A stretch of DNA of 64,000 bases from Patescibacteria group bacterium (GTDB lineage: Bacteria; Patescibacteriota; Patescibacteriia; UBA2591; CALHIP01), in NCBI GenBank assembly GCA_026417895.1, contig JAOACJ010000014.1, forward strand, positions 63 through 64,062, read 5' to 3'. Positions 3,158 through 50,718 of this stretch are shown piece by piece. A model generated the notes under the pieces. It saw only the letters and a program-made list of their open reading frames with translations, was not told the origin of the DNA and did no database searches. Both the position numbers and the translations under genes were made by a program. Numbering within the stretch: the first letter of the stretch is position 1; every line of letters begins with the position of its first letter.

Positions 3158-3487
3158 ATGCGGATTTGGGATGTGCCAATAGATTGTTTGTGTCGTAATC
3201 ATCTTTTAGGCGAACATAGAGAATTACATGCCATTTGGAATATTTTGATAAAAAAGAAAAAGGGGTTTTCCAAACATCCAGAAACATTAAGGTGGCGAGG
3301 AAAATTAAAGGCTCTTTACCTTAAACACGAAGCAATAGTTAGAGAGATGAAAAAACGAGGTTATCAACATCGATCATCTTTAAATAAAAAATTAGCCAAA
3401 GGTAAAGCTCAGCAATATGAATTTTGGCAGTCCAAGGAAGCACAAAAGATAATTTTAAAAAGAAAGTGTCGGCAGTGCGGAGTCTAA
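3158..3487 (+). CDS. pyrimidine-dimer DNA glycosylase-like (T4 endonuclease V family), short form
   Basis: The N-terminus 'MRIWDVPIDCLCRNHLLGEHRELHAIW' parallels T4 DenV '[28 protein letters not shown]'. The catalytic Glu of the 'REL' motif is conserved. Confidence 0.5.
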   Translation: MRIWDVPIDCLCRNHLLGEHRELHAIWNILIKKKKGFSKHPETLRWRGKLKALYLKHEAIVREMKKRGYQHRSSLNKKLAKGKAQQYEFWQSKEAQKIILKRKCRQCGV

Positions 3488-3505
3488 AAAGTTATCCACA
3501 GGGCT

Positions 3506-3534
3506 AATTTGACAAATAGTTTATTGCGATTAAA
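3506..3534 (+). promoter_or_regulatory. sigma70-like promoter (TTGACA-16-TAAAAT) upstream of the fur-like gene
   Basis: Near-consensus -35 and -10 hexamers with 16-17 nt spacing, read directly from the sequence. Confidence 0.3.
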
Positions 3535-3546
3535 ATCTAAATAGGA

Positions 3547-3924
3547 ATGATTACTAATAAAAAAGAAAAGTTAACCTCGCAAAAAAAATTGATTTTAGAT
3601 TACTTGAGATCAGTTAAGACTCACCCTTCGGCTAAAGAGATTTTTAAGACGATAAGAAAAAAATTGCCTCGCATTAGTTTAAGTACCGTCTATCGAATTT
3701 TAAATAATTTGAAAGAAAAAAATCAAATTTTTGAAATTCCGATTGAGACAAGCCGTTTTGATGGCGACCTTTCTCCTCATGCACATTTTATTTGCCAAAA
3801 GTGTCGGAAAATCTTTGATATTTTTGAAAAATTACCATCTTTAAGAATAAAGAAAATAAAAATTGGTTTCGTAAAAAATTATCAAATTTATTTTTATGGC
3901 CTCTGTCAAAAATGTCAAAAATAA
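3547..3924 (+). CDS. Fur-family transcriptional regulator (PerR-like)
   Basis: Winged-helix N-terminus and two CxxC pairs ('HFICQKC', 'GLCQKCQK'). Sits beside peroxide-stress genes. Confidence 0.75.
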   Translation: MITNKKEKLTSQKKLILDYLRSVKTHPSAKEIFKTIRKKLPRISLSTVYRILNNLKEKNQIFEIPIETSRFDGDLSPHAHFICQKCRKIFDIFEKLPSLRIKKIKIGFVKNYQIYFYGLCQKCQK

Positions 3925-4201
3925 AAATTATTGTTGGGACTGTAAAAAAGAAATTAAGTTTAAGGAAAAAGAGATAAAAAATGGGCGAATGCTGACTTAT
4001 GAAACTGGCAGAGAAAAAGTAACTATTTTTAAATGTAATGATTGTTTTTCAAAAAGCAAGGAATTAAAAAATTTTCAAACCTGCGAAGTTTATTCAAGAG
4101 TCGTTGGTTATTTAAGACCAGTCCAACAATGGAATATTGGTAAGCAAAAAGAATTCGAAGAAAGAAAAGAATTCAATCAAAGGTCGAAAATTAAAAATTA
4201 A
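3896..4201 (+). CDS. stand-alone NrdD C-terminal-like protein (zinc ribbon plus glycyl-radical motif)
   Basis: 'CWDC...CNDC' zinc ribbon followed by 'SRVVGYLRPVQQWNIGKQKEFEERKEF'. This matches the E. coli NrdD C-terminus 'CYEC..CPKCGN..TRRVCGYLGSPDARPFNAGKQEEVKRR', including the radical glycine motif. No catalytic barrel is attached. Confidence 0.55.
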   Translation: MASVKNVKNKNYCWDCKKEIKFKEKEIKNGRMLTYETGREKVTIFKCNDCFSKSKELKNFQTCEVYSRVVGYLRPVQQWNIGKQKEFEERKEFNQRSKIKN

Positions 4202-4221
4202 AAATTAAAAATTAAAAATTT

Positions 4222-4791
4222 ATGCCTATGAAAGATCCATTAACTGTTTCTGATCCTAAACCAGTTAAGAAAGGATCAAAAACTTATGAAAATTTATGGA
4301 AAGCATTTGCTGGCGAGGCGCAGGCAAGAAATAAATATACTTACTTTGCTAAAATTGCTCGAGAACAGGGGATGCACCATATAGCAGGAATTTTTGAAGA
4401 AACCGCCAATCATGAATTAGAGCATGCGAAAATGATCTGGAAATTGTTAGGTGAATGGTCGGAGACAAAGGAAAATTTGAAAAAGGCGATTGAAGGAGAG
4501 AATTACGAGCACACGACAATGTATCCGGAATTTAAAAAAGTAGCCAAAGATGAGGGTTTTGAAGATGCAGTCAAATTTTTCACTGAAGTGGCTGAGGTTG
4601 AGGAACAACATGAAAAAAGATATAAAAGATTGTTGGAAGAATTAGAAAAAGGAATGGTTTTCAAAAAAGAAGAAAAGGTGATGTGGGTTTGTCGAAATTG
4701 TGGCTACCTTCACTGGGGAACCGAGGCGCCAAAAGAATGTCCGAACTGTCGACATCCGCAAAGTTACTTTGAGGTTAGGTGTCAGTATTAA
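4222..4791 (+). CDS. rbr: rubrerythrin with C-terminal rubredoxin-like domain
   Basis: Di-iron ExxH motifs ('EAQARNKY', 'ELEHAKM', 'EVEEQHE') and C-terminal 'CRNCGY...CPNC'. Confidence 0.85.
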
Positions 4792-4801
4792 AGTAAAAAA
4801 T

Positions 4802-5194
4802 ATGGTCCAATTAAAACAGATTTATCGTTGTTCAATTTGCGGCAATGTTGTTGAAGTATTGCATGCTAGTGTTGGCCAATTAGTTTGCTGCGGAAAGCCA
4901 ATGGAACTATTGATAGAGAAAACGAAAGATATAGGAGCAGAGAAGCACGTGCCGATTATTGAAAAGAAAGAGGGTGGAATAAAGGTCAGAGTTGGTTCTA
5001 TTCCTCATCCGATGGAAGAGAAGCACTATCTTGAATGGATAGAATTAGTGGTTGACGGAAAGAGTTTTCGTCAGTTTCTCCATCCCGATCAAAAGGCCGA
5101 AGCTGAATTTTTAGTAAAAGTTGAAGAAGGAAGTAAAATTTTTGCTAGAGAATATTGTAATCTTCACGGTCTTTGGAAGGGGTTTGAGAGTTAG
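4802..5194 (+). CDS. dfx: desulfoferrodoxin / superoxide reductase
   Basis: N-terminal desulforedoxin '[11 protein letters not shown]...CCG' and centre II 'EKHVP...[14 protein letters not shown]'. The ORF-track upstream extension (from 4700) overlaps rbr and is rejected. Confidence 0.8.
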
Positions 5195-5293
5195 TCTTGT
5201 CTTCAAATTAGCCCAGATAATTTATTTTAGGGTGAAAGTTTGATTACTACACTAATTTTTCCTATTTTTTAAAGATGATTTATTTAATATAAA

Positions 5294-5506
5294 ATGAAAG
5301 ATAATATGGGAAAGATTAGTAAAAAAAGAAGAAAATTTTTAATCAAACTTAAGCAAGCAAGAAAAAAGAAAATCAGAAAATTACAGGAGAAATATATACT
5401 TGCTAAAAATGAAACCGAAAGAGAAAAAATAATTGAAAAAGCATTGAAGATAAACCCTTTTTTGACGAGAGAAGAATTTCTTGCTCAAATCGGGCAGAAA
5501 AATTAA
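5294..5506 (+). CDS. hypothetical small lysine-rich protein
   Basis: ORF only. Followed by a terminator. Confidence 0.3.
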   Translation: MKDNMGKISKKRRKFLIKLKQARKKKIRKLQEKYILAKNETEREKIIEKALKINPFLTREEFLAQIGQKN

Positions 5507-5536
5507 GTCGATCTTTCATCAAAGGTTTTATCATAG

Positions 5537-5559
5537 AAGGCTCCGGCCTTTTTGTTTTT
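5537..5559 (+). terminator. rho-independent terminator
   Basis: Hairpin 'aaggc-tccg-gcctt' followed by 'tttgttttt'. Confidence 0.5.
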
Positions 5560-5622
5560 CATATCCAAAAGTTTAATTAAAAATAATATTTTTGATTGAC
5601 GGATTAAACAAAAAATGATAGA

Positions 5623-6780
5623 ATGATTAAAATGGCAAGTAATAATTTAAAAATTTCTGTTGTTTTGCCTTGTTTGAATGAAGAAAAAACCATCGGTGTT
5701 TGTTTGGAAAAAATAAAAAAGGCATTTGAAAAATATCATTTGGATGGCGAGATTATTGTTGTTGACAACGGTTCGACCGATCGGTCAGGAGAGATTGCTA
5801 AAAATTTAGGAGCAATTGTTGTTTTTGAGCCGAAAAGGGGATATGGTAATGCCTATCATCGAGGCATCGCCATGGCCAAAGGTGATTTTATTATTATTGG
5901 TGATGCTGATAATACTTATGATTTCGGCGAAATTGATAAATTTATTGGACCACTGAAAGAAGGTTATGATTTGGTCATAGGTAATCGTTTTTCCGGGTTA
6001 ATGAAAAAAAGAGCGATGGGGTTTTGGTCAAGAATTGGTAACCCAATTTTATCTAGCCTTTTGCGTCTATTTTTTCGAACAAAAATTCATGATGCTCACT
6101 GTGGAATGAGGGCTTTTACTAGAACAGCCTATGATAAATTGAATTTACAAACTACTGGGATGGAGTATGCTTCAGAAATGATTGTCAAAGCCATTTGGCA
6201 AAATTTAAAAATAAAAGAAGTACCGATTACTTATTATCCGCGAGTAGGCGAGTCAAAACTTTCTCCTTGGCGCGATGGTTGGCGTCATTTAAAATTTATG
6301 TTAATTTATGCTCCTAATTGGCTTTTTCTTGGGCCCGGGATATTTTTATTTTCCATTGGCCTGTTTCTTTTAATAGCGATGACTTTTGGTGAATTAAGGA
6401 TTGGCAAAGTAATTTTGCACCTTCATCCGATGTTCTTAGGCGCGCTTTTGGTTTTGCTAGGCTATCAAGTTTTTTCTTTTGGTCTTTTAACTAAACTTTA
6501 CGCTTATTCACAAAAATTAATGCCGCGCAGTAAATTAGTTGATTTTTATCTAAAATATTTTTCTTTGGAAAAATTAATTTTTATTGGTCTGTTATTTTTT
6601 TTTGTCGGCCTAGGTTTAGGCATCTCTGTTTATCTTATTTGGGCGCGCGGTGGTTTTGGGGCTTTGTTTGAAGTGAGAAAATCACTAACCTCGATTACTT
6701 TAATGATTCTGGGAATGCAAATTATTTTTACTGGTTTCTTTTATCATATTTTAAGAATCGGTCTGAAGGGACACGAATAA
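5623..6780 (+). CDS. family 2 glycosyltransferase with C-terminal membrane domain (DPM/GtrB-like)
   Basis: 'ISVVLPCLNEEKTIG', 'VVDNGSTDRS', 'GDAD' DxD-like motif, C-terminal TM helices. Confidence 0.75.
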   Translation: MIKMASNNLKISVVLPCLNEEKTIGVCLEKIKKAFEKYHLDGEIIVVDNGSTDRSGEIAKNLGAIVVFEPKRGYGNAYHRGIAMAKGDFIIIGDADNTYDFGEIDKFIGPLKEGYDLVIGNRFSGLMKKRAMGFWSRIGNPILSSLLRLFFRTKIHDAHCGMRAFTRTAYDKLNLQTTGMEYASEMIVKAIWQNLKIKEVPITYYPRVGESKLSPWRDGWRHLKFMLIYAPNWLFLGPGIFLFSIGLFLLIAMTFGELRIGKVILHLHPMFLGALLVLLGYQVFSFGLLTKLYAYSQKLMPRSKLVDFYLKYFSLEKLIFIGLLFFFVGLGLGISVYLIWARGGFGALFEVRKSLTSITLMILGMQIIFTGFFYHILRIGLKGHE

Positions 6781-6790
6781 ATTCAAAAAA

Positions 6791-7318
6791 ATGATTCCAT
6801 TATCTTTTATTTTTCTTTTCTTAAAGTTATTATTGGTTGTTTTTGTTATTATTTTACTTCTAACCTTTTCGCTGCCATTTTTTGGTGGCGTACCTTATGT
6901 ACCAACCCCAGAAAAAAGAGTCAAAAAAATGTTAGAATTGGCTCAATTGAAACAAGGTGAAAAGTTAGTTGATTTAGGTTCGGGCGATGGCCGGATCTTA
7001 ATTGAGGCGGCGAGAATAGGAGCGGAGGCTGTTGGTTATGAAATTGATCCTTTATTAGTTTTGACAAGTAAGAAACTGATAAAAAAGGAAGGATTAGAAA
7101 ATAAAATAAAAATTTATCGAAAAAGTTTTTGGCAGGCCGATTTAAAAGATGCTGACGTGGTGACCTTTTATGGTATCACGGGTATTATGGGGCGGATGGA
7201 AAAAAAATTATTAAGAGAATTAAAGCCAGGCGCTCGTGTTTGTTCTTATGTTTTTGCTTTTCCGCGATGGGAGCCGGTTCGTTACGAATCAGGAATTTTT
7301 TTATATCAAAAATCTTAA
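6791..7318 (+). CDS. class I SAM-dependent methyltransferase
   Basis: Motif I 'LVDLGSGDGRILIEAA', N-terminal TM segment. Confidence 0.6.
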   Translation: MIPLSFIFLFLKLLLVVFVIILLLTFSLPFFGGVPYVPTPEKRVKKMLELAQLKQGEKLVDLGSGDGRILIEAARIGAEAVGYEIDPLLVLTSKKLIKKEGLENKIKIYRKSFWQADLKDADVVTFYGITGIMGRMEKKLLRELKPGARVCSYVFAFPRWEPVRYESGIFLYQKS

Positions 7319-7458
7319 ATTTTAAAAAAGTTATCCACAAATTAATTTTTTTTGACTTATTTTTTATTTTTTTTATAATTACAAAATGATTAAACAATTT
7401 AGCCAAAATTTAGCCAAAGAGAAAAAACTTTCTTGATTTACCAAAAAAATTTTCTGAC

Positions 7459-8286
7459 TTTAAAAAATTAAAAATAGTTATCATCAGTTTTCCTTTTGAA
7501 AAAAACGTCAAGTTATCTTAAAGGTTCAAAACTTGGACCGGAAAAAATTATTGAAACTTCTTCACAAGTTGAATTATGGGATGAAGAATTGTAGTTTGCG
7601 CCTTATCAAATTGGTATTTCTACTCTCAAAATTCAACCATCTAAAGGCCATTTTCAGGCATTAAAGCAATTAGAAAATATTGTTACTAAAATTATTGATG
7701 ATTCTAAGTTGCCCATTGTTTTAGGCGGTGAACATTCAATAACTTTAGGTTCGTTAAAGGCATTGATTAAAAAAACAAAAAAATTAACCATCTGTCAATT
7801 TGATACTCACGCTGACTTAAGAGAAAGTTGGTTGGGCTCAAAATTATCTCATGCGGCAGTCATGCACCGTTGTTTAGAAGTTGATAAAGAAATTAATTTA
7901 GTCCAGATTGGCATCAGAAATATTTCTGAAGAAGAATTGCCGTTTCTTGAAAAGAATAAAAGAAGAATCAAAACTTTTTGGGCTAAAGATAAAAAAATTG
8001 GTCAACTAAAGAAATTATAAAATTTTGTCAAGAAAATATTTTTTTAACTTTTGATTTTGATGTTTTAGATCTTTCCATTATGCCAGCAGTTGGTACACCA
8101 GAATCAAATGGATTAGAATGGAACGAAGTTTTAAGATTATTTAAATCCTTTTCTCAAAAGAGAAAAGTAGTCGGTATTGATTTCGTTGAATTGTGTTCTA
8201 TAAACAAATTAGTGGCACCAGATTTCTTAGCCGCTAAATTGATTTATAAATTTATCTCTTATTTAGTTAAATTTCAACGCCTATGA
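7459..8286 (+). pseudogene. speB: agmatinase/arginase-family (ureohydrolase) gene disrupted by two frameshifts and an in-frame TAG
   Basis: Fragments 'VIISFPFEK', 'KTSSYLKGSKLGPEKIIETSSQVELWDEEL*' (TAG at 7592-7594), 'PIVLGGEHSITLG...FDTHADL' and 'FLTFDFDVLD...MPAVGTPESNGL' lie in three frames. Shifts occur at A-runs near 7500 and 7995. Confidence 0.6.
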
Positions 8287-9341
8287 AGGAACTTAAAAAA
8301 TTTCTTACCAAAAAAGTTAGAGCTATTAAAATTAAAACACCAAAAAAAATTTCTCAGCTTTTAGAAGAAATGAAGAGAACCGGTTTTCAGGGGCGAAAAT
8401 TAGCCGAAGTGACAGAAATTTGGGAGAAAATGATTAAAGACAAAAACGTAACCATTTTCTTTGGCTATACTGGTTCGCTTTCCACTACCGGACAGTGGAA
8501 AATTATTAATTGGTTGATAGAGAATCATTTTATTGATGTCCTTGTTTCTACTGGGGCAAACATTTCTGAGGATATTGTTGGGGCAATGGGAAAGAATTAT
8601 TGGCAAGGCCATCATTTGGTTCAAGATGATTTACTTTTCAAAGTCGGTCTAAATCGTTATTATGACGTTTATGGTCGCGAAGACGATTATCTGGAAATGA
8701 CAGAGTTGATTGCTGATTTTATAATGACACTCAAAGAGAAATATAACTATTCCTCTCGAGAATTTTTATTTCTCTTTGGTCAATGGCTTTGGCAAAAAGG
8801 AATCAAAAGTATTGTTGCCACCGCCGCCAAGAATAAAGTACCGGTTTTTTGTCCGGCTATTGTTGATAGTCCCTATGGTGATGCTGGCCTGCTGGCTAAA
8901 AGTCGAGGCTTTAATCTTATTCTTGACAATATGAAAGATTATTTTGAGTTTATGAAATTAGCTGAGCAGACTAAAGAGACGGCGGTTATCTATATCGGTG
9001 GTGGCGTACCTAAGGACTTTATTCAACTTTTAGCCGTGACAAGTGATCTCTTATATAAAGATAAAAATATTCCTGGTAAAAAGGGCAGGAAACGTCTTTT
9101 AACTAATGAGAGTTATTATCCTCATAAATATGCTATTCAAATTACTACTGATTCGCCGCAATGGGGAGGGCTTTCAGGGGCGACTTTAGACGAAGGTGTT
9201 TCTTGGGGTAAAGAATTACCTGCGGAGGGAAATTATGCCCAATGCTATTGTGACGCAACAATTGCTTTACCAATTATTGCTCAGGCTTTAGCTGAGAGAA
9301 AATTAAAAAGGAAAGGAAGAATTTTAACTTTTGAAGACTAA
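8283..9341 (+). CDS. deoxyhypusine synthase-like protein
   Basis: 'FFGYTGSLSTTGQWKIINWLIENHFIDVLVSTGANISEDIV' is typical of the DHS family. Confidence 0.8.
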   Translation: MKELKKFLTKKVRAIKIKTPKKISQLLEEMKRTGFQGRKLAEVTEIWEKMIKDKNVTIFFGYTGSLSTTGQWKIINWLIENHFIDVLVSTGANISEDIVGAMGKNYWQGHHLVQDDLLFKVGLNRYYDVYGREDDYLEMTELIADFIMTLKEKYNYSSREFLFLFGQWLWQKGIKSIVATAAKNKVPVFCPAIVDSPYGDAGLLAKSRGFNLILDNMKDYFEFMKLAEQTKETAVIYIGGGVPKDFIQLLAVTSDLLYKDKNIPGKKGRKRLLTNESYYPHKYAIQITTDSPQWGGLSGATLDEGVSWGKELPAEGNYAQCYCDATIALPIIAQALAERKLKRKGRILTFED

Positions 9342-10158
9342 TTGTATGGTCTTTATTGTTAAAGCTAATGGCCAGAGACAAGAATTTTCACTAGAAAAAG
9401 TGAGAAGAAGTTGCCTCAGGGCCGGTGCTTCTCCAACTTTGGCTCAAGAGATTAGCCGGAAAATTTCTCATCAGGTCAGAAATGGTATGACGACATTGGA
9501 AATTAGACGATTAATTTTTCGTTATTTAAATAAAGAAGAACCAAAAACAGCCTCTCTTTATTCTCTAAAGGAAGCAATTTTTCGTTTAGGACCGCAAGGT
9601 TTTTATTTTGAAAAAATAGTCGCCGAAATTTTTCAGCGAGAAGGTTACCAAGTAGAAATAGATAAAATTTTTTCGGGAGCCTGTGTTGAACACGAGATTG
9701 ATATTACGGCAAAAAAAGAACAAGAAAAATTAATGATTGAGTGTAAATTTCATCATCAGCCAGGCCTTTATACAGAATTAAAAGATGTGCTTTATGTCTG
9801 GGCAAGGTTTTTAGATTTAAAAGAAGGGGGTTGCGATTTTACTCAACCAGTTTTAGTTTCCAACACAAAATTTTCTGAATCAGTAAAAAAATACGCCCTT
9901 TGTAAGAATTTTCCTTTAATTGGCTGGTCCTACCCAGAAGAAAAAAATCTTCAATATTTTATTGAGAAATATCAACTTTACCCAATTACTGTACTCAGAC
10001 GATTAGAAAAATATTATCAGGAAAAACTTCTGCGCTACGGCATTGTTTCTTGTCAAGATTTATTAAAAATTGAACCAAGAAAACTGCAAAGAGAAACTGG
10101 TCTTGATGTGAAAAAAATCAACATCCTCCGGTCAGAAGTTCTGTCACTAATCCGATAA
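9331..10158 (+). CDS. ATP-cone domain fused to Mrr-like restriction endonuclease (PD-(D/E)xK) core, with C-terminal HhH-like tail
   Basis: N-terminal 'VFIVKANGQRQEFSLEKVRRSCLRAG...TLEIRRLIFRYL' looks like an ATP-cone. 'FEKIVAEIFQREGYQVEI...EHEIDITAKKEQEKLMIECKFH' matches the Mrr_cat pattern (G..FE..V...L...Gy.v...D.GIDi...QcK). Confidence 0.6.
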   Translation: MKTNCMVFIVKANGQRQEFSLEKVRRSCLRAGASPTLAQEISRKISHQVRNGMTTLEIRRLIFRYLNKEEPKTASLYSLKEAIFRLGPQGFYFEKIVAEIFQREGYQVEIDKIFSGACVEHEIDITAKKEQEKLMIECKFHHQPGLYTELKDVLYVWARFLDLKEGGCDFTQPVLVSNTKFSESVKKYALCKNFPLIGWSYPEEKNLQYFIEKYQLYPITVLRRLEKYYQEKLLRYGIVSCQDLLKIEPRKLQRETGLDVKKINILRSEVLSLIR

Positions 10159-10402
10159 TAAGATACGAATTGACGAATATATGCGAATGTTACTGATGGC
10201 GAAGGGGTAATATTAACTGGATGCATTGTCTTTTAAAGTAAAATAAAAATAGACAAAAAAGAGTTATAAACTTAATAAAAACTATACTCTTCTTGTCTAA
10301 TTTTTATTATGATAAGATAATCCTATAGACTTATTTTATTTGTATTTAATTTTAATTTATAAGGAATTTGGGTTATTACGAAAATCTACGAAAATACGAA
10401 AG

Positions 10403-11176
10403 ATGCGGCAAGTAATCAAGATTTTTATTATCTTTCTTCTACCCTTTCTTCTCTATTTTCTATTCTTTCTAAGACCATGTTTAGCTTTAGATTCAGATAA
10501 CGATCGGGTGAGTGATGAAGACGAGACAAAGGTTTATTATACTAATCCATTCAACCATGATACCGATGGCGACGGCTATGATGACTATACGGAAATAAAA
10601 AATGGTTATTCGCCACATCAATTAAAATTGAAAATGAGTCAAACAGACCTTGATCAGGATGGTTTAAGTGATAAACAAGAAAGACTATTAGGTACAGATT
10701 TAGGCAATGGTGATACTGATAACGATGGTTATCAAGACGGCGAAGAAATTTTTTCCGGCCACGATCCAAAAAATCCAAAAAGAGGAGCACGGATGAGTGG
10801 GAAAATTATTGAAATCAGTATTCAAGATCAGTTGCTGCGTTATAGAATCGGTAAAGTTATTTTAGGCGAATACAGGGTTTCAACTGGCTCCGTTCGATAT
10901 CCTACGCCTTTAGGTGAATTTTTAATCGATAAAAAAGAAAAAAGGGCTTATTCAAAAAAATGGCGACTTTGGATGCCCTATTTTTTATCAATGAAAAATG
11001 GTTTGTTTGGTATTCATGAATTACCAGAATGGTCAGACGGAAGAAAAGAAGGTGAAAATCATCTCGGGCAAAGAGTTTCTCATGGCTGTATTCGCTTAGG
11101 TGTTGGTCCAGCTAAAAAAATTTATGACTGGGCTGATGTCGGGACAAAAGTTATAATTAAAAAACATTGGCCATAA
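10403..11176 (+). CDS. L,D-transpeptidase (YkuD) with four N-terminal thrombospondin-type-3-like Ca-binding repeats
   Basis: Signal peptide. Repeats 'DSDNDRVSDEDE', 'DTDGDGYDDYTE', 'DLDQDGLSDKQE', 'DTDNDGYQDGEE'. YkuD catalytic 'SHGCIRL'. Confidence 0.75.
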   Translation: MRQVIKIFIIFLLPFLLYFLFFLRPCLALDSDNDRVSDEDETKVYYTNPFNHDTDGDGYDDYTEIKNGYSPHQLKLKMSQTDLDQDGLSDKQERLLGTDLGNGDTDNDGYQDGEEIFSGHDPKNPKRGARMSGKIIEISIQDQLLRYRIGKVILGEYRVSTGSVRYPTPLGEFLIDKKEKRAYSKKWRLWMPYFLSMKNGLFGIHELPEWSDGRKEGENHLGQRVSHGCIRLGVGPAKKIYDWADVGTKVIIKKHWP

Positions 11177-11455
11177 AGCCTTGCCAATTTTCCAATCATT
11201 TGATAATTTAAAGAAAGAGACTGTATTGAAGCAGGTCAACCAGTCATGTTGGTGAAAAATGTTGTTGAGGGTTAAAAAGAGTTCATGCTTGTGAAATGAA
11301 TTCTTGAGGAAGCGAATATCCTTTTCTGATTTCGTTAAGTTTTATTGCCTTGCTTGCGGTAATAGAATTTGTGATTATCTTAGGAATTCATATAATCGTC
11401 CCCAAGACCGCAACAGGTAAGAAGATGAATTTATTAAGTTTATTAATTTAAATTT

Positions 11456-12898
11456 ATGACAAAAGTAACAATTATTATCATTCTCATCTTTCTTATTCTT
11501 TTTGGCTTATTTTTTTTAAAACCAGTTTTAGCGCAAGAGATTTTTCCTGAGGAGCTAGAAGTGAAAACACCACTGGTTTTGCCAGACAGCAATATTTATT
11601 TTTTCAAAGATTTTTTTCGACAATTGAGATTAGTCTTTACTTTTTCACCCATAAAGAGAGCGGAATTAAGACTGAGAATGGCAAATGAAAAGTTAATAGA
11701 GGTTAAAAAATTGACTGAGAAAGAGACAAAACAGGAATTCATTGAAAGGGCCCTAACGAGTTATCAGCAGGAATTAGAAAAATTAAAAAATCAGATTGAG
11801 AAATTACCTGAAAGCGAAAAGGAGAAATTTTTAGAAAAATATGTTCGTCAGAGTTTAAAACAACAAATGGTTTTGGAAAACATTGCTTCGCAAGTTAAGG
11901 GTGAAGTTTATGAAAAAATTTTAGTCAACCGGGAGAAACACTTAGAGAGGTTTAAAGAAGTGATGGAAAAGATTCAAAACAAAGAGATGGTTCAAGAAAA
12001 AATTCGTCAGGCAGTTTTAGATGTCTTTTATGTTTCACCACCTCGAGCGATAAAAATTTTAGAGTCAATCGAAGAAATAAAAGAAAATTTGCCGGAAGAA
12101 TTGAAAGAAAAAATTGAAGAGATAAAAATAGAAATGATCAAAAAAGCCAAAGAGACATTTCAGGTTTTTCCAACCAAAACTCAAGTGCAAAAAATTGAAG
12201 AACAGCTCAGAACCTTTGCCAATCCTTTAATGGCGCAAAAAATTATTGAAGAAATAAAAGAAAAAGATGTGGTCGTACCACCAGAAGAGGTGAGAATTTT
12301 GCCCCAAGAGATTCTTCAAGAGAAGTTAACTCCTTTATCCGAAGAAAAACAGATTGAAGTTTTAGAAAAAATAGTTAATCAGAGAATTCAACATTTAGAA
12401 AAATTAGAGGAGATTAAAGAAAAGTTAGAAAAATTACCTGAATCAGCCCAAGCTTCAGGGGTGTTAAAAAAAGTTATTGAGAGGCAGATGGAAAAATTAG
12501 AAAAAAAGATAGAGAAAATTGAAGGTCTACCCGAGACTATTCGCGATCAATTAAAAGAAGAATTAAAGGCAAGTCCAAAAATCAGAAAAGAAATAATGAA
12601 AAGAGTGCCGGGGGTAATGGAAAAACTTGAATCAAAAATAGAATCTAAAGAAATCGAAATAAAACCACCCTTAGAGGCGTCTCGGCAAGCCAGGCTTTCT
12701 GGTTTTTGTGGTTGGGCAACTTATGCCTTATGTAAGACTAATGAAGATTGTTTAAGTGGCGGTTGTTCTCATCAAATCTGTCATGGAAAAAATGAGGAGA
12801 GGACGATTACTACTTGTGAGTGGCGAGATTGTTATAAAGCTGAGGCTTATGGCCTGAAATGTGGTTGTTTTCAAGGAAAATGTCAGTGGGGAAAATAA
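11456..12898 (+). CDS. secreted coiled-coil protein with C-terminal cysteine-rich domain
   Basis: Signal/TM N-terminus, long E/K-rich helical repeats. The C-terminal about 65 aa carry 11 Cys ('GFCGWATYALCKTNEDCLSGGCSHQICHG...CGCFQGKCQWGK'). Confidence 0.4.
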   Translation: MTKVTIIIILIFLILFGLFFLKPVLAQEIFPEELEVKTPLVLPDSNIYFFKDFFRQLRLVFTFSPIKRAELRLRMANEKLIEVKKLTEKETKQEFIERALTSYQQELEKLKNQIEKLPESEKEKFLEKYVRQSLKQQMVLENIASQVKGEVYEKILVNREKHLERFKEVMEKIQNKEMVQEKIRQAVLDVFYVSPPRAIKILESIEEIKENLPEELKEKIEEIKIEMIKKAKETFQVFPTKTQVQKIEEQLRTFANPLMAQKIIEEIKEKDVVVPPEEVRILPQEILQEKLTPLSEEKQIEVLEKIVNQRIQHLEKLEEIKEKLEKLPESAQASGVLKKVIERQMEKLEKKIEKIEGLPETIRDQLKEELKASPKIRKEIMKRVPGVMEKLESKIESKEIEIKPPLEASRQARLSGFCGWATYALCKTNEDCLSGGCSHQICHGKNEERTITTCEWRDCYKAEAYGLKCGCFQGKCQWGK

Positions 12899-12944
12899 TT
12901 TTAGAAATTAGAGCCTAGAGAATAGAAAAATAGTATTTTCTATT

Positions 12945-13436
12945 ATGTTTCAGCTATCTGAAAAAGAGATCCAAACGAAAATCATTTTGTCTAACGAAAA
13001 AATTTTGGCTCAGTTTGGCATAGCCAAAACCTATGTTCATTTTTGGATTGTTTTAGGAGTTTTGATTTTAATTATTTCGATGCTTATATCTTTATTTTTT
13101 ATTTCTGATTTTTGGCTGGCCATTCTTTTAGGTTTAGCCATCATTGGCTATGCCTTTTATTTGTCGTTGGCTTATTTTTATTTTTTAACCGATCAGAGGA
13201 TAATTTTTTATTACCGATTTTTCCATACTCATTTAGTTTCAATTAATTACAAAGATATTACAGATCTTAATGTCCGAGAAAGTTTTTTTGAAAAGATATT
13301 TTTTGATTCAGGTAATTTAGTCATCAACACAGCTGGCACACCACAGGAAGAAATCATTTTTTTGCATATTGCTCAACCCCACTTGATTAAAAGAAAGATA
13401 GAAGAAATAAAATTAAAAGATGAAAAATCTTTCTAA
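12945..13436 (+). CDS. bacterial PH-domain (YdbS/YdbT-like) membrane protein
   Basis: Two TM helices followed by 'LTDQRIIFYYRFF...VINTAGT', which resembles bPH_2. Confidence 0.45.
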   Translation: MFQLSEKEIQTKIILSNEKILAQFGIAKTYVHFWIVLGVLILIISMLISLFFISDFWLAILLGLAIIGYAFYLSLAYFYFLTDQRIIFYYRFFHTHLVSINYKDITDLNVRESFFEKIFFDSGNLVINTAGTPQEEIIFLHIAQPHLIKRKIEEIKLKDEKSF

Positions 13437-14016
13437 AATTGGGGTCTTAGGTGGGGCCTTCAATCCACCTCATTGTGGTCATTTATTAATTGCCAAAAAG
13501 GCAATCAAAGAATTAGGGTTGAAAAAAATCATTTTGATGGTAACTGGCAAGCCCGCCCTCAAAAAGAATGATTTGGCACCAATCAAAGAAAGAATGGCTA
13601 TGGCCAAAATTTTAACTTCTTATAATCATCGCTTAGAAATTTCAGATCTGGAGGTGAAAAAAGCAAAAAAGGGAAAAACCTCTTATACTACCGAGACGAT
13701 TCGAGACTTACAGAAAAAATATCCATTAACGGAAATTTATTGGCTGATTGGCGAAGATTCTTTACAAGAAATACTCCAGGGAAAATGGCGGGGGGGTTTG
13801 TCAATATTTAATCAGGCAAAGTTTATTGTTTTTCAGAGACCTGGCATTAAAGTTAAAATTCCCAAAAATATTTTCAAAAAAATAAAAAATATTAAATTAA
13901 AGGTTTCTATTTCTTCCACTGAAATCAGAGAAAAAATTAAAAATGGTAAAGATGTTTCTAAAATGGTACCAAAAAAAATTTTAGGATACATTAAAAAGAA
14001 AAAACTTTATTTATGA
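13420..14016 (+). CDS. nadD: nicotinate-nucleotide adenylyltransferase
   Basis: 'GVLGGAFNPPHCGHL' (HxGH). Confidence 0.8.
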   Translation: MKNLSKIGVLGGAFNPPHCGHLLIAKKAIKELGLKKIILMVTGKPALKKNDLAPIKERMAMAKILTSYNHRLEISDLEVKKAKKGKTSYTTETIRDLQKKYPLTEIYWLIGEDSLQEILQGKWRGGLSIFNQAKFIVFQRPGIKVKIPKNIFKKIKNIKLKVSISSTEIREKIKNGKDVSKMVPKKILGYIKKKKLYL

Positions 14017-14828
14017 AAATTCCAAAACATTTAAAAATTGATAAGCAAAGAGCACGGAAGATGATTAAAGATAAAGTCAAAGAAATAAGGAATTATTTTA
14101 AAAAATCTGGTTTTAAAAAGGGGGTGATCGGTCTTTCTGGTGGTCTTGATTCGGCCCTTGCTTGTTATTTAGCTGTCCGGGCATTAGAGGCAAAAAATGT
14201 TTATGTGGTGATGATGCCTTATTATGGAATCAGCGATAAAAATTCAATCATTGATGCCTTAAAGTTGATTGAGAATTTAAAGATCCCAAAAAAGAATATT
14301 TTACTCTTGCCAGTCAATAAACCAGTCGAAGCATCTTGGCAGATTCTTAAAAAATATAAAGGGAAAGAAAAAATCAGAAAAGGTAATTTAATGGCCCGTG
14401 AAAGAATGAAAATTTTATTTGACTTGTCACAAGTTTTCAATGCTATGGTCGTTGGTACCGAAGATAGAACTGAAGAAGAACTAGGTTATTATACTTTATG
14501 GGGGGACGAGGCTTCGGGCATTGAACCAATTAGGAATTTGTGGAAAACACAAGTTTCTCAATTAGCCAGTCATTGCAAAGAGATTCCTAAAGAAATTTTA
14601 AACAAAGAACCTTCGCCAGGACTTTGGAAAAATCATTCGGCTAAAAACGAACTAGGCTTTTCTCACCTCGAAGCTGATATTGTTTTATCAGCCTTCAAAG
14701 ACTTAAAAATGAAGCCGATAGAGATTAATAGAAAATTTGAAATTTCAAAGAAAAAAATTGATTTAATTTTGAAACGCACAGAGGTGGGTCAAATAAAAAA
14801 AACAATACCATATATTTTAAAAAAATAA
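14013..14828 (+). CDS. nadE: NH3-dependent NAD+ synthetase
   Basis: PP-loop 'GLSGGLDSAL'. Overlaps the nadD stop. Confidence 0.85.
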   Translation: MKIPKHLKIDKQRARKMIKDKVKEIRNYFKKSGFKKGVIGLSGGLDSALACYLAVRALEAKNVYVVMMPYYGISDKNSIIDALKLIENLKIPKKNILLLPVNKPVEASWQILKKYKGKEKIRKGNLMARERMKILFDLSQVFNAMVVGTEDRTEEELGYYTLWGDEASGIEPIRNLWKTQVSQLASHCKEIPKEILNKEPSPGLWKNHSAKNELGFSHLEADIVLSAFKDLKMKPIEINRKFEISKKKIDLILKRTEVGQIKKTIPYILKK

Positions 14829-43762: not shown

Positions 43763-44674
43763 ATGAAAAGATCTTTTTCTCTCATTGAATTAATGGTTGC
43801 TTTGGGCGTTTTTGTTTTGGTGGCGAGCGCCATCATTTTTTTAGTCATTGGTAGTCAGCAATGGCAAAAGGTTTCTCAAGAAAGAGCAGTTGCTATCCAA
43901 CTGGCTCAAGAGGCGATGGAAGCAGTTCGTTCGATTCGTGACCGCGATTGGAACGAATTAAAAACAGATTCGCGGTGTAGTGAGCAAAATCTAAGAACAC
44001 GAACTTATGGTTTAAAAATTGTCAATAATGCTTGGACTTTAAGTACGCTTGAAATTGATAAAAAAGTGACCCTTAACAACAAAGAATATACCCGCCTCAT
44101 TAAAGTAGATTGTGTTTTTGAAAATGGCATTGCCAATCCAGACAAGAAAAAAATTACCGTTGAAGTTTCCTGGGGTGTCCTACCTGGTCGGTCAATTAGT
44201 TTAGTTTCTTATTTGACCAACTGGCGATCTGCTGATTTTGCCACTAAAACCAAAGGCGATTTTGAAGCCGGCGTTTTTGAAAACACTAAATTAATTGATG
44301 GCAACAATCCGATTATCAAACTTGATGATTTGGCTGGTGCCACCATCCGAGCTAATGAGTTTTTTATTGATGGTTTTACCAACACTTCAGAAATTACCAC
44401 TAACAAAAAAATCTCCTTCCGTTTTACCGCCCAAAACAACAAGACTCCTAATCAGGTCAAATTTTATATTAATCAAGTTTCTCAGCCTGGTACTTTTCGG
44501 GCTGGTTTACAGAACAATGCTAATGGTCAGCCATCCGGCACTTGGCTTTGTTCAAATATCTTTTCGGTCCAACAAAATTTCATCGGTTGGCAAACAGTTA
44601 ATCTTTCCGGTTGCCCAGCAATCGGTCCTAATACCGATTATAAAATTGTCCATCTCGTCATTGAGCCACAATAA
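43763..44674 (+). CDS. prepilin-type minor pilin / pseudopilin (303 aa)
   Basis: 'MKRS|FSLIELMVALGVFVLV'. Confidence 0.65.
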   Translation: MKRSFSLIELMVALGVFVLVASAIIFLVIGSQQWQKVSQERAVAIQLAQEAMEAVRSIRDRDWNELKTDSRCSEQNLRTRTYGLKIVNNAWTLSTLEIDKKVTLNNKEYTRLIKVDCVFENGIANPDKKKITVEVSWGVLPGRSISLVSYLTNWRSADFATKTKGDFEAGVFENTKLIDGNNPIIKLDDLAGATIRANEFFIDGFTNTSEITTNKKISFRFTAQNNKTPNQVKFYINQVSQPGTFRAGLQNNANGQPSGTWLCSNIFSVQQNFIGWQTVNLSGCPAIGPNTDYKIVHLVIEPQ

Positions 44675-44714
44675 AAGCCCTTTCTCAGCATTTAAAAATT
44701 AAAAATTTTAAAGT

Positions 44715-44963
44715 ATGCCTCAAGATAAAATTATTTTAAAATTATTAGAGCATGATGAACGATTAGAGAGAATCGAGGAGAAAATGGCAACAAAAGACGA
44801 TATGAGAGAAATTATGGAAATGCTGGAGGGAATTACCACCATTGCTCAGCGCCTTGATCAAGAAAGAATTTTTACGGCTGAATGGGTTAAGCGCATCGAG
44901 AAAGAAGTTGAAGAACATCGCCAGGAAATTATCAAAATTAAAAAAGTTTTAAAAATTACTTAA
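44715..44963 (+). CDS. small helical protein, paralog 2
   Basis: See paralog 1. Confidence 0.35.
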   Translation: MPQDKIILKLLEHDERLERIEEKMATKDDMREIMEMLEGITTIAQRLDQERIFTAEWVKRIEKEVEEHRQEIIKIKKVLKIT

Positions 44964-44990
44964 AATCTCAATCAATCTCTTTTGTAATTT

Positions 44991-47900
44991 ATGAGGAAAA
45001 AAATTTTTAAAATTTTGTTGCCGGGTTTGGTTACTTTAACCCTCATTTTTTCTTTTTTTGAATTTAACCTTCACTCTTTTTTTCTTCAGGCTCAAGAGGC
45101 AATGAAAATTGAAGTACCAATTGAAATGGTTGACTATGGCTTGGCTTCGTCAAGAGAAGCGACTCTTTTTAATCGGACAAAAATCTTTCTTGACCCCAAT
45201 GATTATCAAGCTGATTCAACCAATTACTTTTTTGAAATCGTGGCTATAAATACAGATGAAAGAGAGGGAAGAGTTGTCTTGGTTGATTCTAAGAAGCAAC
45301 CAGTCGCCGAGATTACTGTACCACCCCAGACCAATCAACCAGCCCGTTTTAGAACAAAAGAGCCTTTTAGTTTATCTCAGGATGAATATCTTATTATACT
45401 GGAAGGAACCTCAGCAGAGAATCAACTTCAGGTTTATGCCGCCAGAATTATTATTCAACAAACGAATCCTCAAGTAACAAGAATCCAAATTCCCTTAACC
45501 AGCGGTCCAGATGATAGTTATTCTTTTAAAGAGACAGCAATTGATCAAGTAGAAAGTGGAAATTATATTCAGCCACAACCTCAATTTTACCATCTCTGGT
45601 CCTATCGTTCTCTTGATTGGGTGAGTTTAGCTGAGAGTAATCCTTTTACCTTAGAAGCTGTTTTAGCCGGCGATATTAGTGCTGCACTTTTTGATCAAAA
45701 TAATCAAATAGTTAGTGGTTCAGAAATTTCTGTCTCCAGCCAAACTCCTCTTTTGATGCAAAAAGATTTTACTGATTTAGTTGATGCTACTTATCAGTTA
45801 AAAATTAGAGGTAGAGAAGGCTTAATTTATCGGGCTGCTCTTTATCTGAGATTAACCAATCCAATAGCTTTAGAAATTTATTATCGTTATCAAAGAATGA
45901 GACAGTCTCAGACAGCTGAAATTAGAAGCTATCAAAGAGTGCTTTATGATGCCAGCCAATTTCCTGAGCATCAGATTTATCATGAAGCAACCGGTCAAGG
46001 GCAAAACCTAATGGCTGTCATTTACGACCATAGTCAAAATGAGAGCGGTACTACCAATGGCAACAACATTGAATCTTCAGCTATTAATTTTAACTCATCA
46101 GAGAAAATATTAATGCGGACTTCTCCTTTTTCTCTAACCTCTGGCAACCGCTTTATTTATTCTGTTCTTGGCGAAAGTGGCGATTTAATTTTAACCAGCG
46201 CCTCAATAGTCATTAAAATTGGTCAGCCAAAAATTGACCAGACCCACTATCGCTGGCGCAATGATAATGGTGGAGAATTGGGCGGTAATTTTGAGGTAGT
46301 TACACTTTTGCCCAATGGTAATGGTGACGAAATTACTTGGACCCCTTATCCTAATACTCCCAATCATTATACTTTAGTCGCTGACGAAAGTGATAACTCA
46401 TACGTTTATAAAACCATTCAGACCGATCTGGCCATTTTCCGTTTCGGTCTTAAAGAAAGTAATGGTTCTGTCTCTAGTTTTTCTGTTACTTTGACAGGAG
46501 ATTATGCTGAGTATTCTTATCAATGGAGTGTTAAACCATCAAATGGTCAGCCTTGGACACCTAGCGCGATTAATGATTTACAGATTGGGGTGGCCTATAA
46601 TATACTTGAAGAAATACCAATACCAGGTAAAGGAGAGATACCTGAAGAAAAAGAAGAATTAGAAGAGTCGTTTCATATTGCAGACCTTTCTTTACCTACT
46701 GGTGTTGTCATTGATTATGTTAAAGTCTTTGTCCGGGCTAAAAGGGTCTGTCGTGTAGGTCCTGAATGGCCTCCAACTTATAATTGTACTGCTTTTACGG
46801 CGAAAATGTGGGCAGAGGTTAAGTATTATCCCGGCGCGACCTATAAAGCTGACGAGGATACGCCCGTGACCAATCAAGTAAAAAATAAAAATGTCCGTTT
46901 AAGATTTTCTTTGAAGAATACCGGCTCAGCTCCAGCGGTTAATTATCAATATCGCCTCCAAGTGGCTCCAAAAGGTACGGCTAGTAGTTGCCTAGAAGTG
47001 CCGCCTGAAAATTATACGGATGTGCCAACAGCTGGGAACTGTGGTTCAGCTGTTGCTTGTATGGCTGATTCTTCATATCTTGATGATGGCCAAGCAACAA
47101 CCTGGCAACTGAGTGGGCCGGGTGAAGATTGGACTTGGGCAGACGGTAAAATAGTTGAAAGGCCTTCTAATCAGACATCTCAATTTACTTTAGAAACGAA
47201 ATCTTTTACGGAATTTGAATATAATTTTCAATTCACTAATAATGCTATTGGCGGCGCTACCTACTGTTTTCGGTTATCAAATGCTGGTGAAGGTTTGGAT
47301 AATTATAATCAAATCGCGGCTATTACCTTATTACAAACACTACCATCTTTCCGTCTTAGAGTCTCCACACCCTTAAATTATAAACAGCCCTATAATCATT
47401 CTGAGCCGGCTAAAAATTTTAATGACTCCGCTTCTAATGTGCTTTATTGGAACGGCTCGTCTTGGCTGGTTCAAAACCAACAACCGATTTATCTTATTGG
47501 TTTTAGCGATGGTAGTTTTGAGGGAAATCCGTATGATGAAGAGAATCAAACCGATAACCAGATTAATAGTTCTTCAATAAAAATTGGTCAACAATTTACC
47601 GTGCCAGCTGGAGCAGCAACTCAAAAAGTCATTCAGACTAGCTTTTATCTTAAAAAGACAGGCAACCCACCAGATCTTCTTCTTACTTTAGAAAAAGTTG
47701 GTGGTAGTTCGGTTACAAAAACTATTTCTGCCAATACCGTCTCTAATCAATATGCTTGGGTCGAAGCACCAGCTTTTGATGAAGCCTTTAATTTAGAAGC
47801 CAATGCCACTTACCGCCTTTATCTTTCTTGTGCTGGCTGTAGTGCAAACAATTATTATCAAGTCAAAAGATTAAAAACAATGAGTGGAATCAATAGTCTG

Positions 47901-50309: not shown

Positions 50310-50372
50310 AATAAAATTTTTAATTTCTAATTTTGAATTTTGAATAAATTTTTAATGGTCTAATTTTGAAAG

Positions 50373-50678: not shown

Positions 50679-50718
50679 CTTTAATTTTCGGCAAAATTAT
50701 TGGCTCACTCAATAAAAA

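Follow-up and report, generated by a model that had tools for sequence, protein, structure and literature searches.

An ATP-cone joined to a PD-(D/E)XK nuclease core in Patescibacteria: an intact member of a widespread, biochemically uncharacterised family

The locus and the start of the gene

The analyzed stretch of DNA, hereafter the window, comprises 64,000 nucleotides of a Patescibacteria genome. The region considered here carries a string of a pseudogene and two intact genes, the last of which encodes the predicted nuclease. Its features, in order of position, are:

7352..7379, + strand: promoter-like site TTGACT-16-TATAAT (11/12 in a consensus scan), ahead of the pseudogene-DHS-nuclease string
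7420..8283, + strand: agmatinase-like (arginase family) pseudogene, seen by tblastn against intact orthologues and as Pfam Arginase fragments
8283..9341, + strand: intact deoxyhypusine-synthase-like (DHS) gene, ending 4 nt ahead of ATG 9346
9331..9345, + strand: five-codon extension MKTNC, implied by a TTG start; present in 0 homologues, with the NCBI start at 9346
9346..10158, + strand: coding sequence of the ATP-cone / Mrr_cat / AF1548-like_C protein, 270 aa plus stop, ATG start
9352..9564, + strand: ATP-cone domain (Pfam PF03477; Foldseek match to the NrdR cone; conserved K6, G9, F14, and K18)
9598..9897, + strand: PD-(D/E)XK core, Mrr_cat (Pfam PF04471; PDB 1y88; invariant active-site residues)
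9610-9612, 9694-9696, 9700-9702, 9739-9741, and 9745-9747, + strand: predicted catalytic codons of E89, E117, D119, E132, and K134, respectively
9979..10143, + strand: AF1548-like C-terminal helical domain (Pfam PF22357; 1y88 coverage; five model helices)

The open reading frame 9331..10158 (+ strand) gives a protein of 275 aa when TTG 9331 is used, the start assumed in the earlier note, and the amino acid ranges of the domains below are counted from this codon. However, the identical protein in NCBI (P0001) is 270 aa long, and thus starts at ATG 9346. All aligned homologues begin at the Met of ATG 9346 or within 3-4 residues of it, and 31 homologues align with the window protein over its full length. 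The MKTNC extension is, judging from these alignments, probably untranslated. The overlap with the DHS stop (9331 versus 9341) that the earlier note described depends on TTG 9331 being the start. Since the favored start lies downstream of the DHS stop codon (TAA 9339-9341), separated from it by a gap of 4 nt, neither the overlap nor the co-translation deduced from it is supported. This protein already has an NCBI entry, under the name "ATP cone domain-containing protein".

The DHS-like gene scores 294.9 bits with the Pfam family DS and 413.6 bits with the NCBIfam model PRK00805, just below the cut-off of 434. The agmatinase-like gene upstream of it is a true pseudogene, as the earlier note had proposed: tblastn reveals a lost start, frameshifts near 7505 and 8000, and a TGG to TAG change near 7594. 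The promoter-like site is a pattern match, and the region has no more of these sites than chance would give; a hairpin at 7276-7290 comes after the gene that precedes it. The only methyltransferase gene nearby (6791-7318) matches the PrmA and small-molecule class I methyltransferase families. Elsewhere in the 64-kb window we found neither a second ATP-cone gene nor salvage partners, namely an AMP phosphorylase (tblastn) or a RuBisCO motif.

Domain architecture of the predicted nuclease

The N-terminal part of the protein (aa 8-78 of the 275-aa frame) belongs to the ATP-cone family PF03477, with 31.7 bits against a cut-off of 25.8. The AlphaFold model of the window protein (pLDDT 94.7, pTM 0.88) has the β-hairpin and four helices of the ATP-cone fold, and Foldseek superimposes it on the E. 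coli NrdR ATP-cone with an rmsd of 1.8-1.9 Å over 81 residues. The cone profile of the nuclease family also matches the cones of ribonucleotide reductases (RNR) in PDB, those of Aquifex NrdA and Prevotella NrdD. The identification of the N-terminus as an ATP-cone, made in the earlier note, is thus borne out by both profile and fold. The cones of NrdA, NrdD, and NrdB resemble the window cone by profile, but sit on a reductase rather than on a nuclease. NrdR likewise joins an adenine-nucleotide sensor of this fold to a module that interacts with DNA; it differs in having a Zn-ribbon and being a sequence-specific binder, whereas the window protein has a nuclease core and A7 in place of Arg, and scores only 14.4 bits against the cut-off of 124.65 of the NCBIfam model for NrdR, TIGR00244.

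Among relatives, the cone residues K6, G9, F14, and K18 are conserved in at least 95% of cases, and together with E12 (205 of 263 proteins) and T50 they form a strongly conserved set in a family that is about 40% identical overall. Both Lys residues, K6 and K18, are present in the window protein. Their counterparts in S. coelicolor NrdR, K50 and K62, contact the nucleotide (PMC9110341). The canonical phosphate-binding motif KR(D)G reads KA(S/N)G in most members, the position of its Arg being occupied by Ala in 176 and by Arg in 12 of the 263 proteins, and the complete canonical KRDG is retained in the Archaeoglobales. Further, the window protein has Q12 at the position of the Glu that in ATP-cones contacts adenine N6, where 205 members have Glu and 26 Gln, and a change rare in the family, R71L. 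Because the Arg of the motif is replaced in most members, and because of Q12 and R71L, the window protein might bind nucleotides differently or less well.

The cone is followed by the Mrr_cat core (PF04471; aa 90-189, 28 bits against a cut-off of 21) and the AF1548-like_C domain (PF22357; aa 217-271, 40.1 bits against 23.9), so that the three-domain build read from the DNA, including an intact PD-(D/E)XK active site, stands. All five predicted catalytic residues are without variation in 267 of 267 relatives; the D...ExK residues lie within HEIDITAKKEQEKLMIECKFH, the stretch for which an alignment had been called for. Both refutations foreseen in the earlier note, an N-terminus other than an ATP-cone by profile and unconserved catalytic residues, were checked, and neither occurred. 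The C-terminal helical domain is probably a DNA-binding domain of the (HhH)2 type. The HhH-like tail of the earlier note is weakly supported, by matches to RAD51D_N and IMS_HHH_1 (E about 0.03-0.05) and by five predicted helices. The protein also contains conserved Cys/His residues.

The closest structural relative is AF1548 of Archaeoglobus fulgidus (PDB 1y88; COG1787), a member of the same family with the D...ExK motif and the C-terminal helical domain. Residues 82-264 match it with E=1e-44, and the Foldseek TM score is 0.83. Its D...ExK motif was predicted to be catalytic (PMC1821046, PMC1874628), and we found no reported activity for it. The crystallized construct begins internally and lacks the ATP-cone and the α-1 Glu, both of which are present in the window protein. 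The sole solved structure of the family is one without the cone; a natural protein 99% identical to the construct has 265 aa and a canonical KRDG ATP-cone. Mrr and other type IV restriction endonucleases have the Mrr_cat core in common with the window protein, whereas their N-terminal winged-helix reader Mrr_N has no match in it, and their defence context and mobility are not shared.

Distribution and genomic neighborhoods of the family

The family to which the intact window gene belongs is widespread and biochemically uncharacterised. It comprises about 630 clusters (at 50% identity), and its carriers, at least 595 species, are Patescibacteria, archaea, Bacteroidota, and members of other groups. 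The carriers include minimal-genome Patescibacteria and DPANN archaea, as well as the cultured Flagellimonas, Pontibacter, Geoglobus, and Ferroglobus. The full-length architecture persists, at 262-295 aa, in almost every one of the top 150 representatives. Across phyla the family is patchily distributed, and bacteria and archaea are intermixed in places in a rough tree. In the literature searched, which did not extend to the ATP-cone paper of Aravind et al. (2000), we found no description of an ATP-cone fused to a nuclease and no biochemistry of any member of the ATP-cone/Mrr_cat family.

No neighbor is common to all 80 species-level loci that were compared, and the immediate neighbors are mostly housekeeping genes, among which the position of the nuclease gene is stable in many Patescibacteria. 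The commonest of them is mnmA, which gene clustering places in 25 of the 80 loci; mltG and alaS also occur nearby. All 25 loci are from Patescibacteria, and the adjacency of mnmA thus reflects lineage synteny. Genes of DNA or nucleotide metabolism recur as neighbors in separate lineages: Patescibacteria have UDG4 and a Cas4-like nuclease, and a clade labelled 'Gammaproteobacteria' has DinB; one archaeon has an ATP-dependent ligase nearby. In Nitrososphaera, an AMP phosphorylase gene lies directly upstream of the nuclease gene, and in Bacteroidota the nuclease forms a tight operon with a β-CASP RNase, an archaeal-type thymidine/AMP phosphorylase, and a ribose-phosphate diphosphokinase. These scattered neighbors, hinting at DNA repair or nucleotide salvage, were spotted after the fact, and each of the two associations occurs in only some three to four independent lineages.

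Functional interpretation

We consider it moderately probable that the window gene encodes an adenine-nucleotide-regulated chromosomal PD-(D/E)XK DNA endonuclease of the AF1548/COG1787 family, acting most likely in DNA repair or nucleic-acid/nucleotide turnover. The protein is predicted to be an intact, cytosolic, metal-dependent DNA endonuclease that probably holds DNA by its C-terminal (HhH)2-like domain. If the analogy to RNR and NrdR holds, ATP, dATP, or ADP bound in the cone would make the enzyme alternate between an active and an inactive oligomer or conformation, and DNA cleavage would then follow the adenylate/dATP state of the cell. The analysis shows the identity of the domains, the fold, the intact active site, and the distribution and context of the gene, whereas nuclease activity, action on DNA, gating by nucleotides, and the biological role are inferred. 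The suggestion in the earlier note that the nuclease is gated by adenine nucleotides is supported by the domain structure, with the gating itself deduced from the role of the ATP-cone in RNR and NrdR.

To our knowledge, studies of the ATP-cone have so far been confined to its part as master switch in ribonucleotide reductases and in NrdR, their repressor. This family could hold the first enzyme controlled by an ATP-cone outside ribonucleotide reduction, a DNA endonuclease whose activity is set by the ATP/dATP/ADP ratio; we put this forward as a tentative proposal. If true, DNA breakdown for repair or salvage would depend on the nucleotide pool in minimal-genome Patescibacteria and in DPANN archaea, and in Bacteroidota it would be tied to the operon of the β-CASP RNase, the AMP/thymidine phosphorylase, and the PRPP-synthetase-like gene. 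Were a sensor on an intact nuclease confirmed across the carrier species, regulatory logic of the RNR type would reach DNA cleavage. The idea is easy to test, since cultured carriers and a crystal structure of the core exist. For the window itself the outcome is mostly a correction, with a new start codon, a DHS link that is non-functional, and no sign of defence.

It is unlikely, in our estimate, that the ATP-cone has become a structural or oligomerisation module that binds no nucleotide, on a constitutive structure-specific nuclease, for instance of the Hjc-like or repair type. That most members have Ala or Ser instead of the KR-motif Arg, and that the window protein carries Q12 and R71L, agrees with such a loss of binding, and repair genes are found among some neighbors. 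However, conservation of K6, G9, E12, F14, K18, and T50 in so divergent a family would be hard to explain if no ligand were bound, and the Archaeoglobales members keep the motif complete. The name 'Holliday junction resolvase', given to homologues in some sources, points in the same direction as the Pfam match to Hjc (PF01870), which is weak: at 15.5 bits it falls below the cut-off of 21.1.

Equally improbable is a role in anti-phage defence; the earlier note had raised defence as a possible function. In this reading the protein would be a type IV restriction-like or abortive-infection-like nuclease whose ATP-cone would sense a collapse of the ATP/dNTP pool during infection and unleash DNA degradation. 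CARF-nucleases, which are switched on by cyclic oligoadenylates, provide the model. The design is indeed common to the CARF effectors Can2, Card1, Cdn1, and VC1899, a sensor of an adenine-nucleotide-derived ligand on a PD-(D/E)XK nuclease; the likeness is one of analogy, as these proteins sense by CARF and the window protein by an ATP-cone, with no CRISPR or CBASS context. Foldseek finds a weak resemblance to Can2, Cdn1, and VC1899, one homologue matches the CARF_PDDEXK model, and the core is homologous to Mrr_cat. The patchy distribution, with bacteria and archaea interleaved in places, also speaks for this reading. Nevertheless, no copies were found in IMG/VR or, by tblastn, among 50,697 phage records, plasmids gave 2 matches in 72,556, and the BFVD fold search yielded no full-length viral analogue; a mobile or viral origin was rejected on these searches.

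A PADLOC scan of the protein, of its partners in operons of other phyla, and of the 151 immediate neighbors in the 80 loci gave no match at the level of a system, and a defence system was likewise rejected. The protein itself gives a weak match of 24 bits, confined to the domain level, to the Mrr-like nuclease domain of ZorD. Models were matched by 26 of the 151 neighbors with no defence pattern: 13 were MnmA cross-matching the QueC model, and the other 13 include a single strong match, to MzaA (E=1e-61). The protein has no Mrr_N methyl-DNA reader domain by Pfam, no cognate DNA methyltransferase is adjacent to its gene, and none was found among the 151 neighbors. No paper in the literature searched ties the ATP-cone to defence. 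The setting among housekeeping genes is stable in many Patescibacteria, and in the favored reading the nuclease gene is a stand-alone chromosomal gene and not a restriction-modification or mobile defence module.

A functional coupling of the nuclease to deoxyhypusine synthase and polyamine metabolism, suggested in the earlier note, is very unlikely. The gene junctions are tight, with the 4-nt gap in the window, a 4-nt overlap in relative L092, and a 1-nt gap after the arginase gene in L084, where the DHS is only 34% identical to that of the window; three relatives have a polyamine pair adjoining the nuclease, arranged in two ways. The neighborhood is, however, conserved in a narrow clade only. 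Adjacency to DHS is confined to close relatives (58-74% identity), one of which lacks DHS; in relative P0014 (65% identity) the nuclease is found with no polyamine genes. Neither a DHS nor an arginase-family gene lies within 8 kb in any of the 80 species-level loci. In a tblastn survey of 92 loci, the window DHS, the arginase fragments, YkuD, and the methyltransferase appeared in close relatives only, and DHS/polyamine genes were rejected as a general association. No mechanistic link is known, and of the supposed partners in the window, the agmatinase gene has decayed to a pseudogene, whereas the nuclease gene is intact. The position of the nuclease gene after DHS reflects a lineage-specific gene order, and the functional link is largely refuted by the synteny survey.

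Finally, a catalytically dead, nucleotide-sensing, DNA-binding regulator would follow the logic of NrdR, an ATP-cone plus a DNA-binding domain, but is extremely improbable given the invariance of the five catalytic residues in all relatives, the missing Zn-ribbon, and the score with the NrdR model far below its cut-off.

Domain architecture and gene start

The genes considered here are:
7420-8283 (+), agmatinase-like pseudogene of the arginase family
8283-9341 (+), deoxyhypusine-synthase-like gene (DS)
9346-10158 (+), nuclease gene

The nuclease combines an N-terminal ATP-cone (Pfam, 31.7 bits against a curated cut-off of 25.8), an Mrr_cat core (28 against 21), and an AF1548-like_C C-terminal part (40.1 against 23.9), which confirms the ATP-cone and Mrr-type core recognized in an earlier, sequence-only note. 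AF1548 of Archaeoglobus fulgidus is a structural-genomics protein; its structure (PDB 1y88) matches residues 82-264 with E=1e-44. An AlphaFold2 model built from the family alignment (mean pLDDT 94.7, pTM 0.88) retrieves the same structure in Foldseek (E=9e-18, target TM 0.83), while its N-terminal 81 residues retrieve the ATP-cone of Escherichia coli NrdR (rmsd 1.8-1.9 Å) and many ribonucleotide reductase (RNR) cones. A profile of the N-terminal 80 residues of the family also matches the cones of Aquifex NrdA and Prevotella NrdD. The well-folded N-terminal ATP-cone, the intact PD-(D/E)XK core, and the helical C-terminal domain, which is (HhH)2-like, are conserved as a unit.

We modestly favor, on the combined analysis, an adenine-nucleotide-responsive, metal-dependent DNA-cleaving nuclease with a non-defense chromosomal role. 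The C-terminal domain would bind the DNA that the core would cleave with the help of a divalent metal, and adenine nucleotides bound to the cone would shift oligomerization or conformation, and hence activity, as they do in RNR and NrdR.

The residues of S. coelicolor NrdR that touch the inner ATP are K50, R51, and E56, and the outer nucleotide is contacted by K62 (PMC9110341); the corresponding residues of the window protein are K6, A7, Q12, and K18. The hairpin Arg is replaced by Ala or Ser in most family members, the commonest motifs being KASG (99), KANG (36), and KADG (22), with the canonical KRDG in only 6. Position 12 is E in 205 and Q in 26. Another substitution, R71L, attainable by one change (CGT to CTT), is rare: 245 of 267 relatives, including all the closest ones, carry R or K there (window 9346-9585). 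Therefore, this cone plausibly, though not certainly, binds nucleotides, perhaps with a specificity unlike that of canonical cones. The same substitutions could be read as a degenerate cone on a constitutive nuclease, which we consider unlikely; K6, G9, F14, K18, R25, G27, and T50 are strongly conserved in the family.

The reading frame proposed earlier, 9331..10158 (+), is present, with ATG 9346 favored over TTG 9331 as its start. The identical NCBI protein (P0001) is 270 aa long, all 32 aligned family members begin at this methionine or no more than a few residues from it, and none of the other members of this alignment has the MKTNC extension. Since DS ends with TAA at 9339-9341, 4 nt lie between it and the nuclease gene, and the overlap once taken to imply co-translation disappears. 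Among relatives, the junction is a 22-nt gap in locus L081, a 4-nt overlap in L092, and a 1-nt gap after the arginase gene in L084; it is tight operon packing in which overlap is not conserved. A near-consensus promoter-like site at 7352-7379, a pattern match only, lies ahead of the pseudogene-DS-nuclease string and is preceded by a hairpin at 7276-7290. The G+C content of the window is low (about 0.29-0.42).

Family distribution and genomic context

A word-indexed search yielded 535 homologues and an exhaustive profile search 630 clusters at 50% identity (E<=1e-30), nearly all of the best 150 being full-length matches of 262-295 aa. Scanning GTDB with one genome per species confirmed relatives at no fewer than 595 matched stretches. 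Bacterial carriers include many Patescibacteria, Bacteroidota (including the cultured Flagellimonas iocasae), Actinomycetota, Parachlamydiales, Bacteriovoracaceae, and Nitrospinaceae; carriers among DPANN and other archaea include Aenigmarchaeota, Micrarchaeota, Iainarchaeum, Hadesarchaea, Methanoperedens, Nitrososphaera, and Thermofilaceae. Databases name the proteins "ATP cone domain-containing protein", "restriction endonuclease", "ATPase", or "Holliday junction resolvase". In a rough neighbor-joining tree without support values, the Bacteroidota and Actinomycetota clades are coherent, the window protein groups with DPANN archaeal sequences (Iainarchaeum, Micrarchaeota) outside the main Paceibacteria/Patescibacteria clade, and a few further Patescibacteria sequences are nested among archaea. 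This placement hints that the gene may have been transferred between domains.

The open reading frames of 80 species-level loci were clustered, and 151 immediate neighbors were tallied by Pfam and PADLOC. The commonest neighbor is mnmA, directly upstream in 25 of the 80 loci; with mltG farther upstream and alaS downstream of the nuclease, it forms a Patescibacteria housekeeping block. Subsets of the loci have downstream genes for a family 4 uracil-DNA glycosylase (UDG; 12 loci within 1.5 kb), MgtC, DUF7282, or a Cas4-like PDDEXK_1 protein.

The earlier note had allowed for a defense role. In the Pfam tally, the 151 immediate neighbors include no DNA methyltransferase, and no partner dominates. 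Of the PADLOC matches, 13 to QueC are cross-matches of MnmA and 13 others are scattered, with a single strong one (MzaA, E=1e-61). Neither IMG/VR nor the 50,697 phage records searched contain family members; 2 of 72,556 plasmids do. A BFVD fold search gave per-domain similarity only. These results argue against restriction-modification or mobile defense, and we regard a defense nuclease as improbable, on a par with the degenerate cone.

Several loci from independent lineages place the nuclease beside genes of DNA or nucleotide metabolism:
L039 (Bacteroidia), 7989-12645: nuclease, beta-CASP/RMMBL nuclease, archaeal-type thymidine/AMP phosphorylase, ribose-phosphate diphosphokinase
L069 (Flagellimonas), 7959-14603: the same four-gene string, with a PPK2 polyphosphate kinase farther downstream
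L063 (Nitrososphaera), 6384-8822: AMP phosphorylase (TIGR03327, 586.6 bits against 535) 46 nt upstream of the nuclease on the same strand
L002 (archaeon), 3316-8834: AMP-phosphorylase-like gene, phosphoglycerate mutase, ATP-dependent DNA ligase, nuclease

The L039 genes are spaced by a 4-nt overlap and then gaps of 3 and 2 nt, and the diphosphokinase belongs to the PRK07199 subfamily (395.4 bits, cut-off 322). In L069, 297 nt separate the nuclease from the beta-CASP gene, and the phosphorylase matches TIGR02645 with 602 bits (cut-off 434.6). We found neither PADLOC matches in this Bacteroidota operon nor a published description of it. Four further loci have just the beta-CASP gene after the nuclease, and in four loci of a "Gammaproteobacteria"-labelled clade a DinB polymerase gene converges on the nuclease. 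For Patescibacteria and archaea, a nucleotide-salvage route that includes AMP phosphorylase has been proposed (PMC7304191); neither this enzyme nor a RuBisCO motif was found in the 64-kb window. These associations, spotted after the fact and each backed by few independent lineages, suggest a theme of DNA repair or nucleic-acid/nucleotide turnover; they do not establish function.

Polyamine genes upstream of the nuclease

The agmatinase-like gene is decayed, as noted earlier: its start is lost, frameshifts occur near 7505 and 8000, each in an A-run, and a TGG-to-TAG change near 7594 introduces a stop. Misassembly of homopolymers could in principle account for the frameshifts, but not for the nonsense codon. 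The DS and nuclease genes downstream are both intact. The DS protein scores 413.6 bits, just below the cut-off of 434 of the NCBIfam deoxyhypusine synthase equivalog, and also matches the models for homospermidine synthesis and 1,9-bis(guanidino)-5-aza-nonane synthase; bacteria are not known to have the usual hypusine target. The DS and arginase-family genes therefore look more like a polyamine-synthesis pair, half-decayed in the window.

Conservation of this neighborhood is confined to some close relatives. In homologues P0007 (71% identity) and P0015 (59%) the genes run arginase, DS, nuclease, and in P0020 (58%) DS, arginase, nuclease. In P0014 (65%) polyamine genes are absent and the nuclease directly follows the upstream LTD-domain gene; the neighbors of P0025 (49%) and P0032 (46%) are unrelated. 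No DS or arginase-family gene occurs within 8 kb in any of the 80 species-level loci. With this absence, and with the agmatinase-like gene dead beside an intact nuclease, the association is a lineage-specific gene order, and the feature that made the gene appear special fails. The pair in L084/L085 (4076-5999; nuclease 58% identical) is reversed relative to window 7420-9341, and its DS is 34% identical to that of the window, versus 61-80% in other relatives, which suggests that another cassette occupies the corresponding locus. Two differing arrangements beside the nuclease are the sole, weak hint of more than gene order, and functional coupling to polyamine metabolism is very improbable.

AF1548 and the active site

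AF1548 was predicted to be a PD-(D/E)XK nuclease with catalytic D38, E51, and K53 (PMC1821046; PMC1874628) and was placed in Mrr_cat/COG1787 by a superfamily survey (PMC3424549). Its 99%-identical natural counterpart P0268 has 265 aa, with a cone carrying the canonical "VRKRDGRLEEF" and a "GPSGFGFEK" segment (conserved GPxGFxFE) bearing the alpha-1 Glu. The crystallized AF1548, the sole solved structure of the family, is thus an N-terminally truncated gene call that lacks both the ATP-cone regulatory domain and the alpha-1 catalytic Glu.

Counted from ATG 9346, E89, E117, D119, E132, and K134 are invariant across 267 aligned relatives, so the loss of catalytic residues that the earlier note had considered is not seen, and a catalytically dead regulator is the least probable reading of all.

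The catalytic residues are flanked by two Cys and two His (window 9682-9753), all nearly invariant (C113 in 248 of the 267, H116 in 255, C133 in 219, H136 in 249), which may form either a metal site or a redox-sensitive pair.

An identical protein is already in the databases under a name, Pfam covers the architecture, and the structure of a truncated member has been available since 2004, so the window gene is a further member of a catalogued, uncharacterized family. No biochemical study of the family was found in the literature searched, nor any report of an ATP-cone fused to a nuclease or tied to nucleases or defense, the original ATP-cone paper (Aravind et al. 2000) lying outside that search. 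The interest that remains is that no ATP-cone-regulated nuclease has been characterized, and the idea is readily testable.

Elsewhere, a 1772-aa open reading frame (44991-50309) lies where the G+C content of the window is highest (0.39-0.42 versus about 0.32). Proteins whose N-termini resemble prepilins (43763-44674 and 50719-51459) flank it within 43763-51459, and it probably encodes a large surface protein or one associated with pili.
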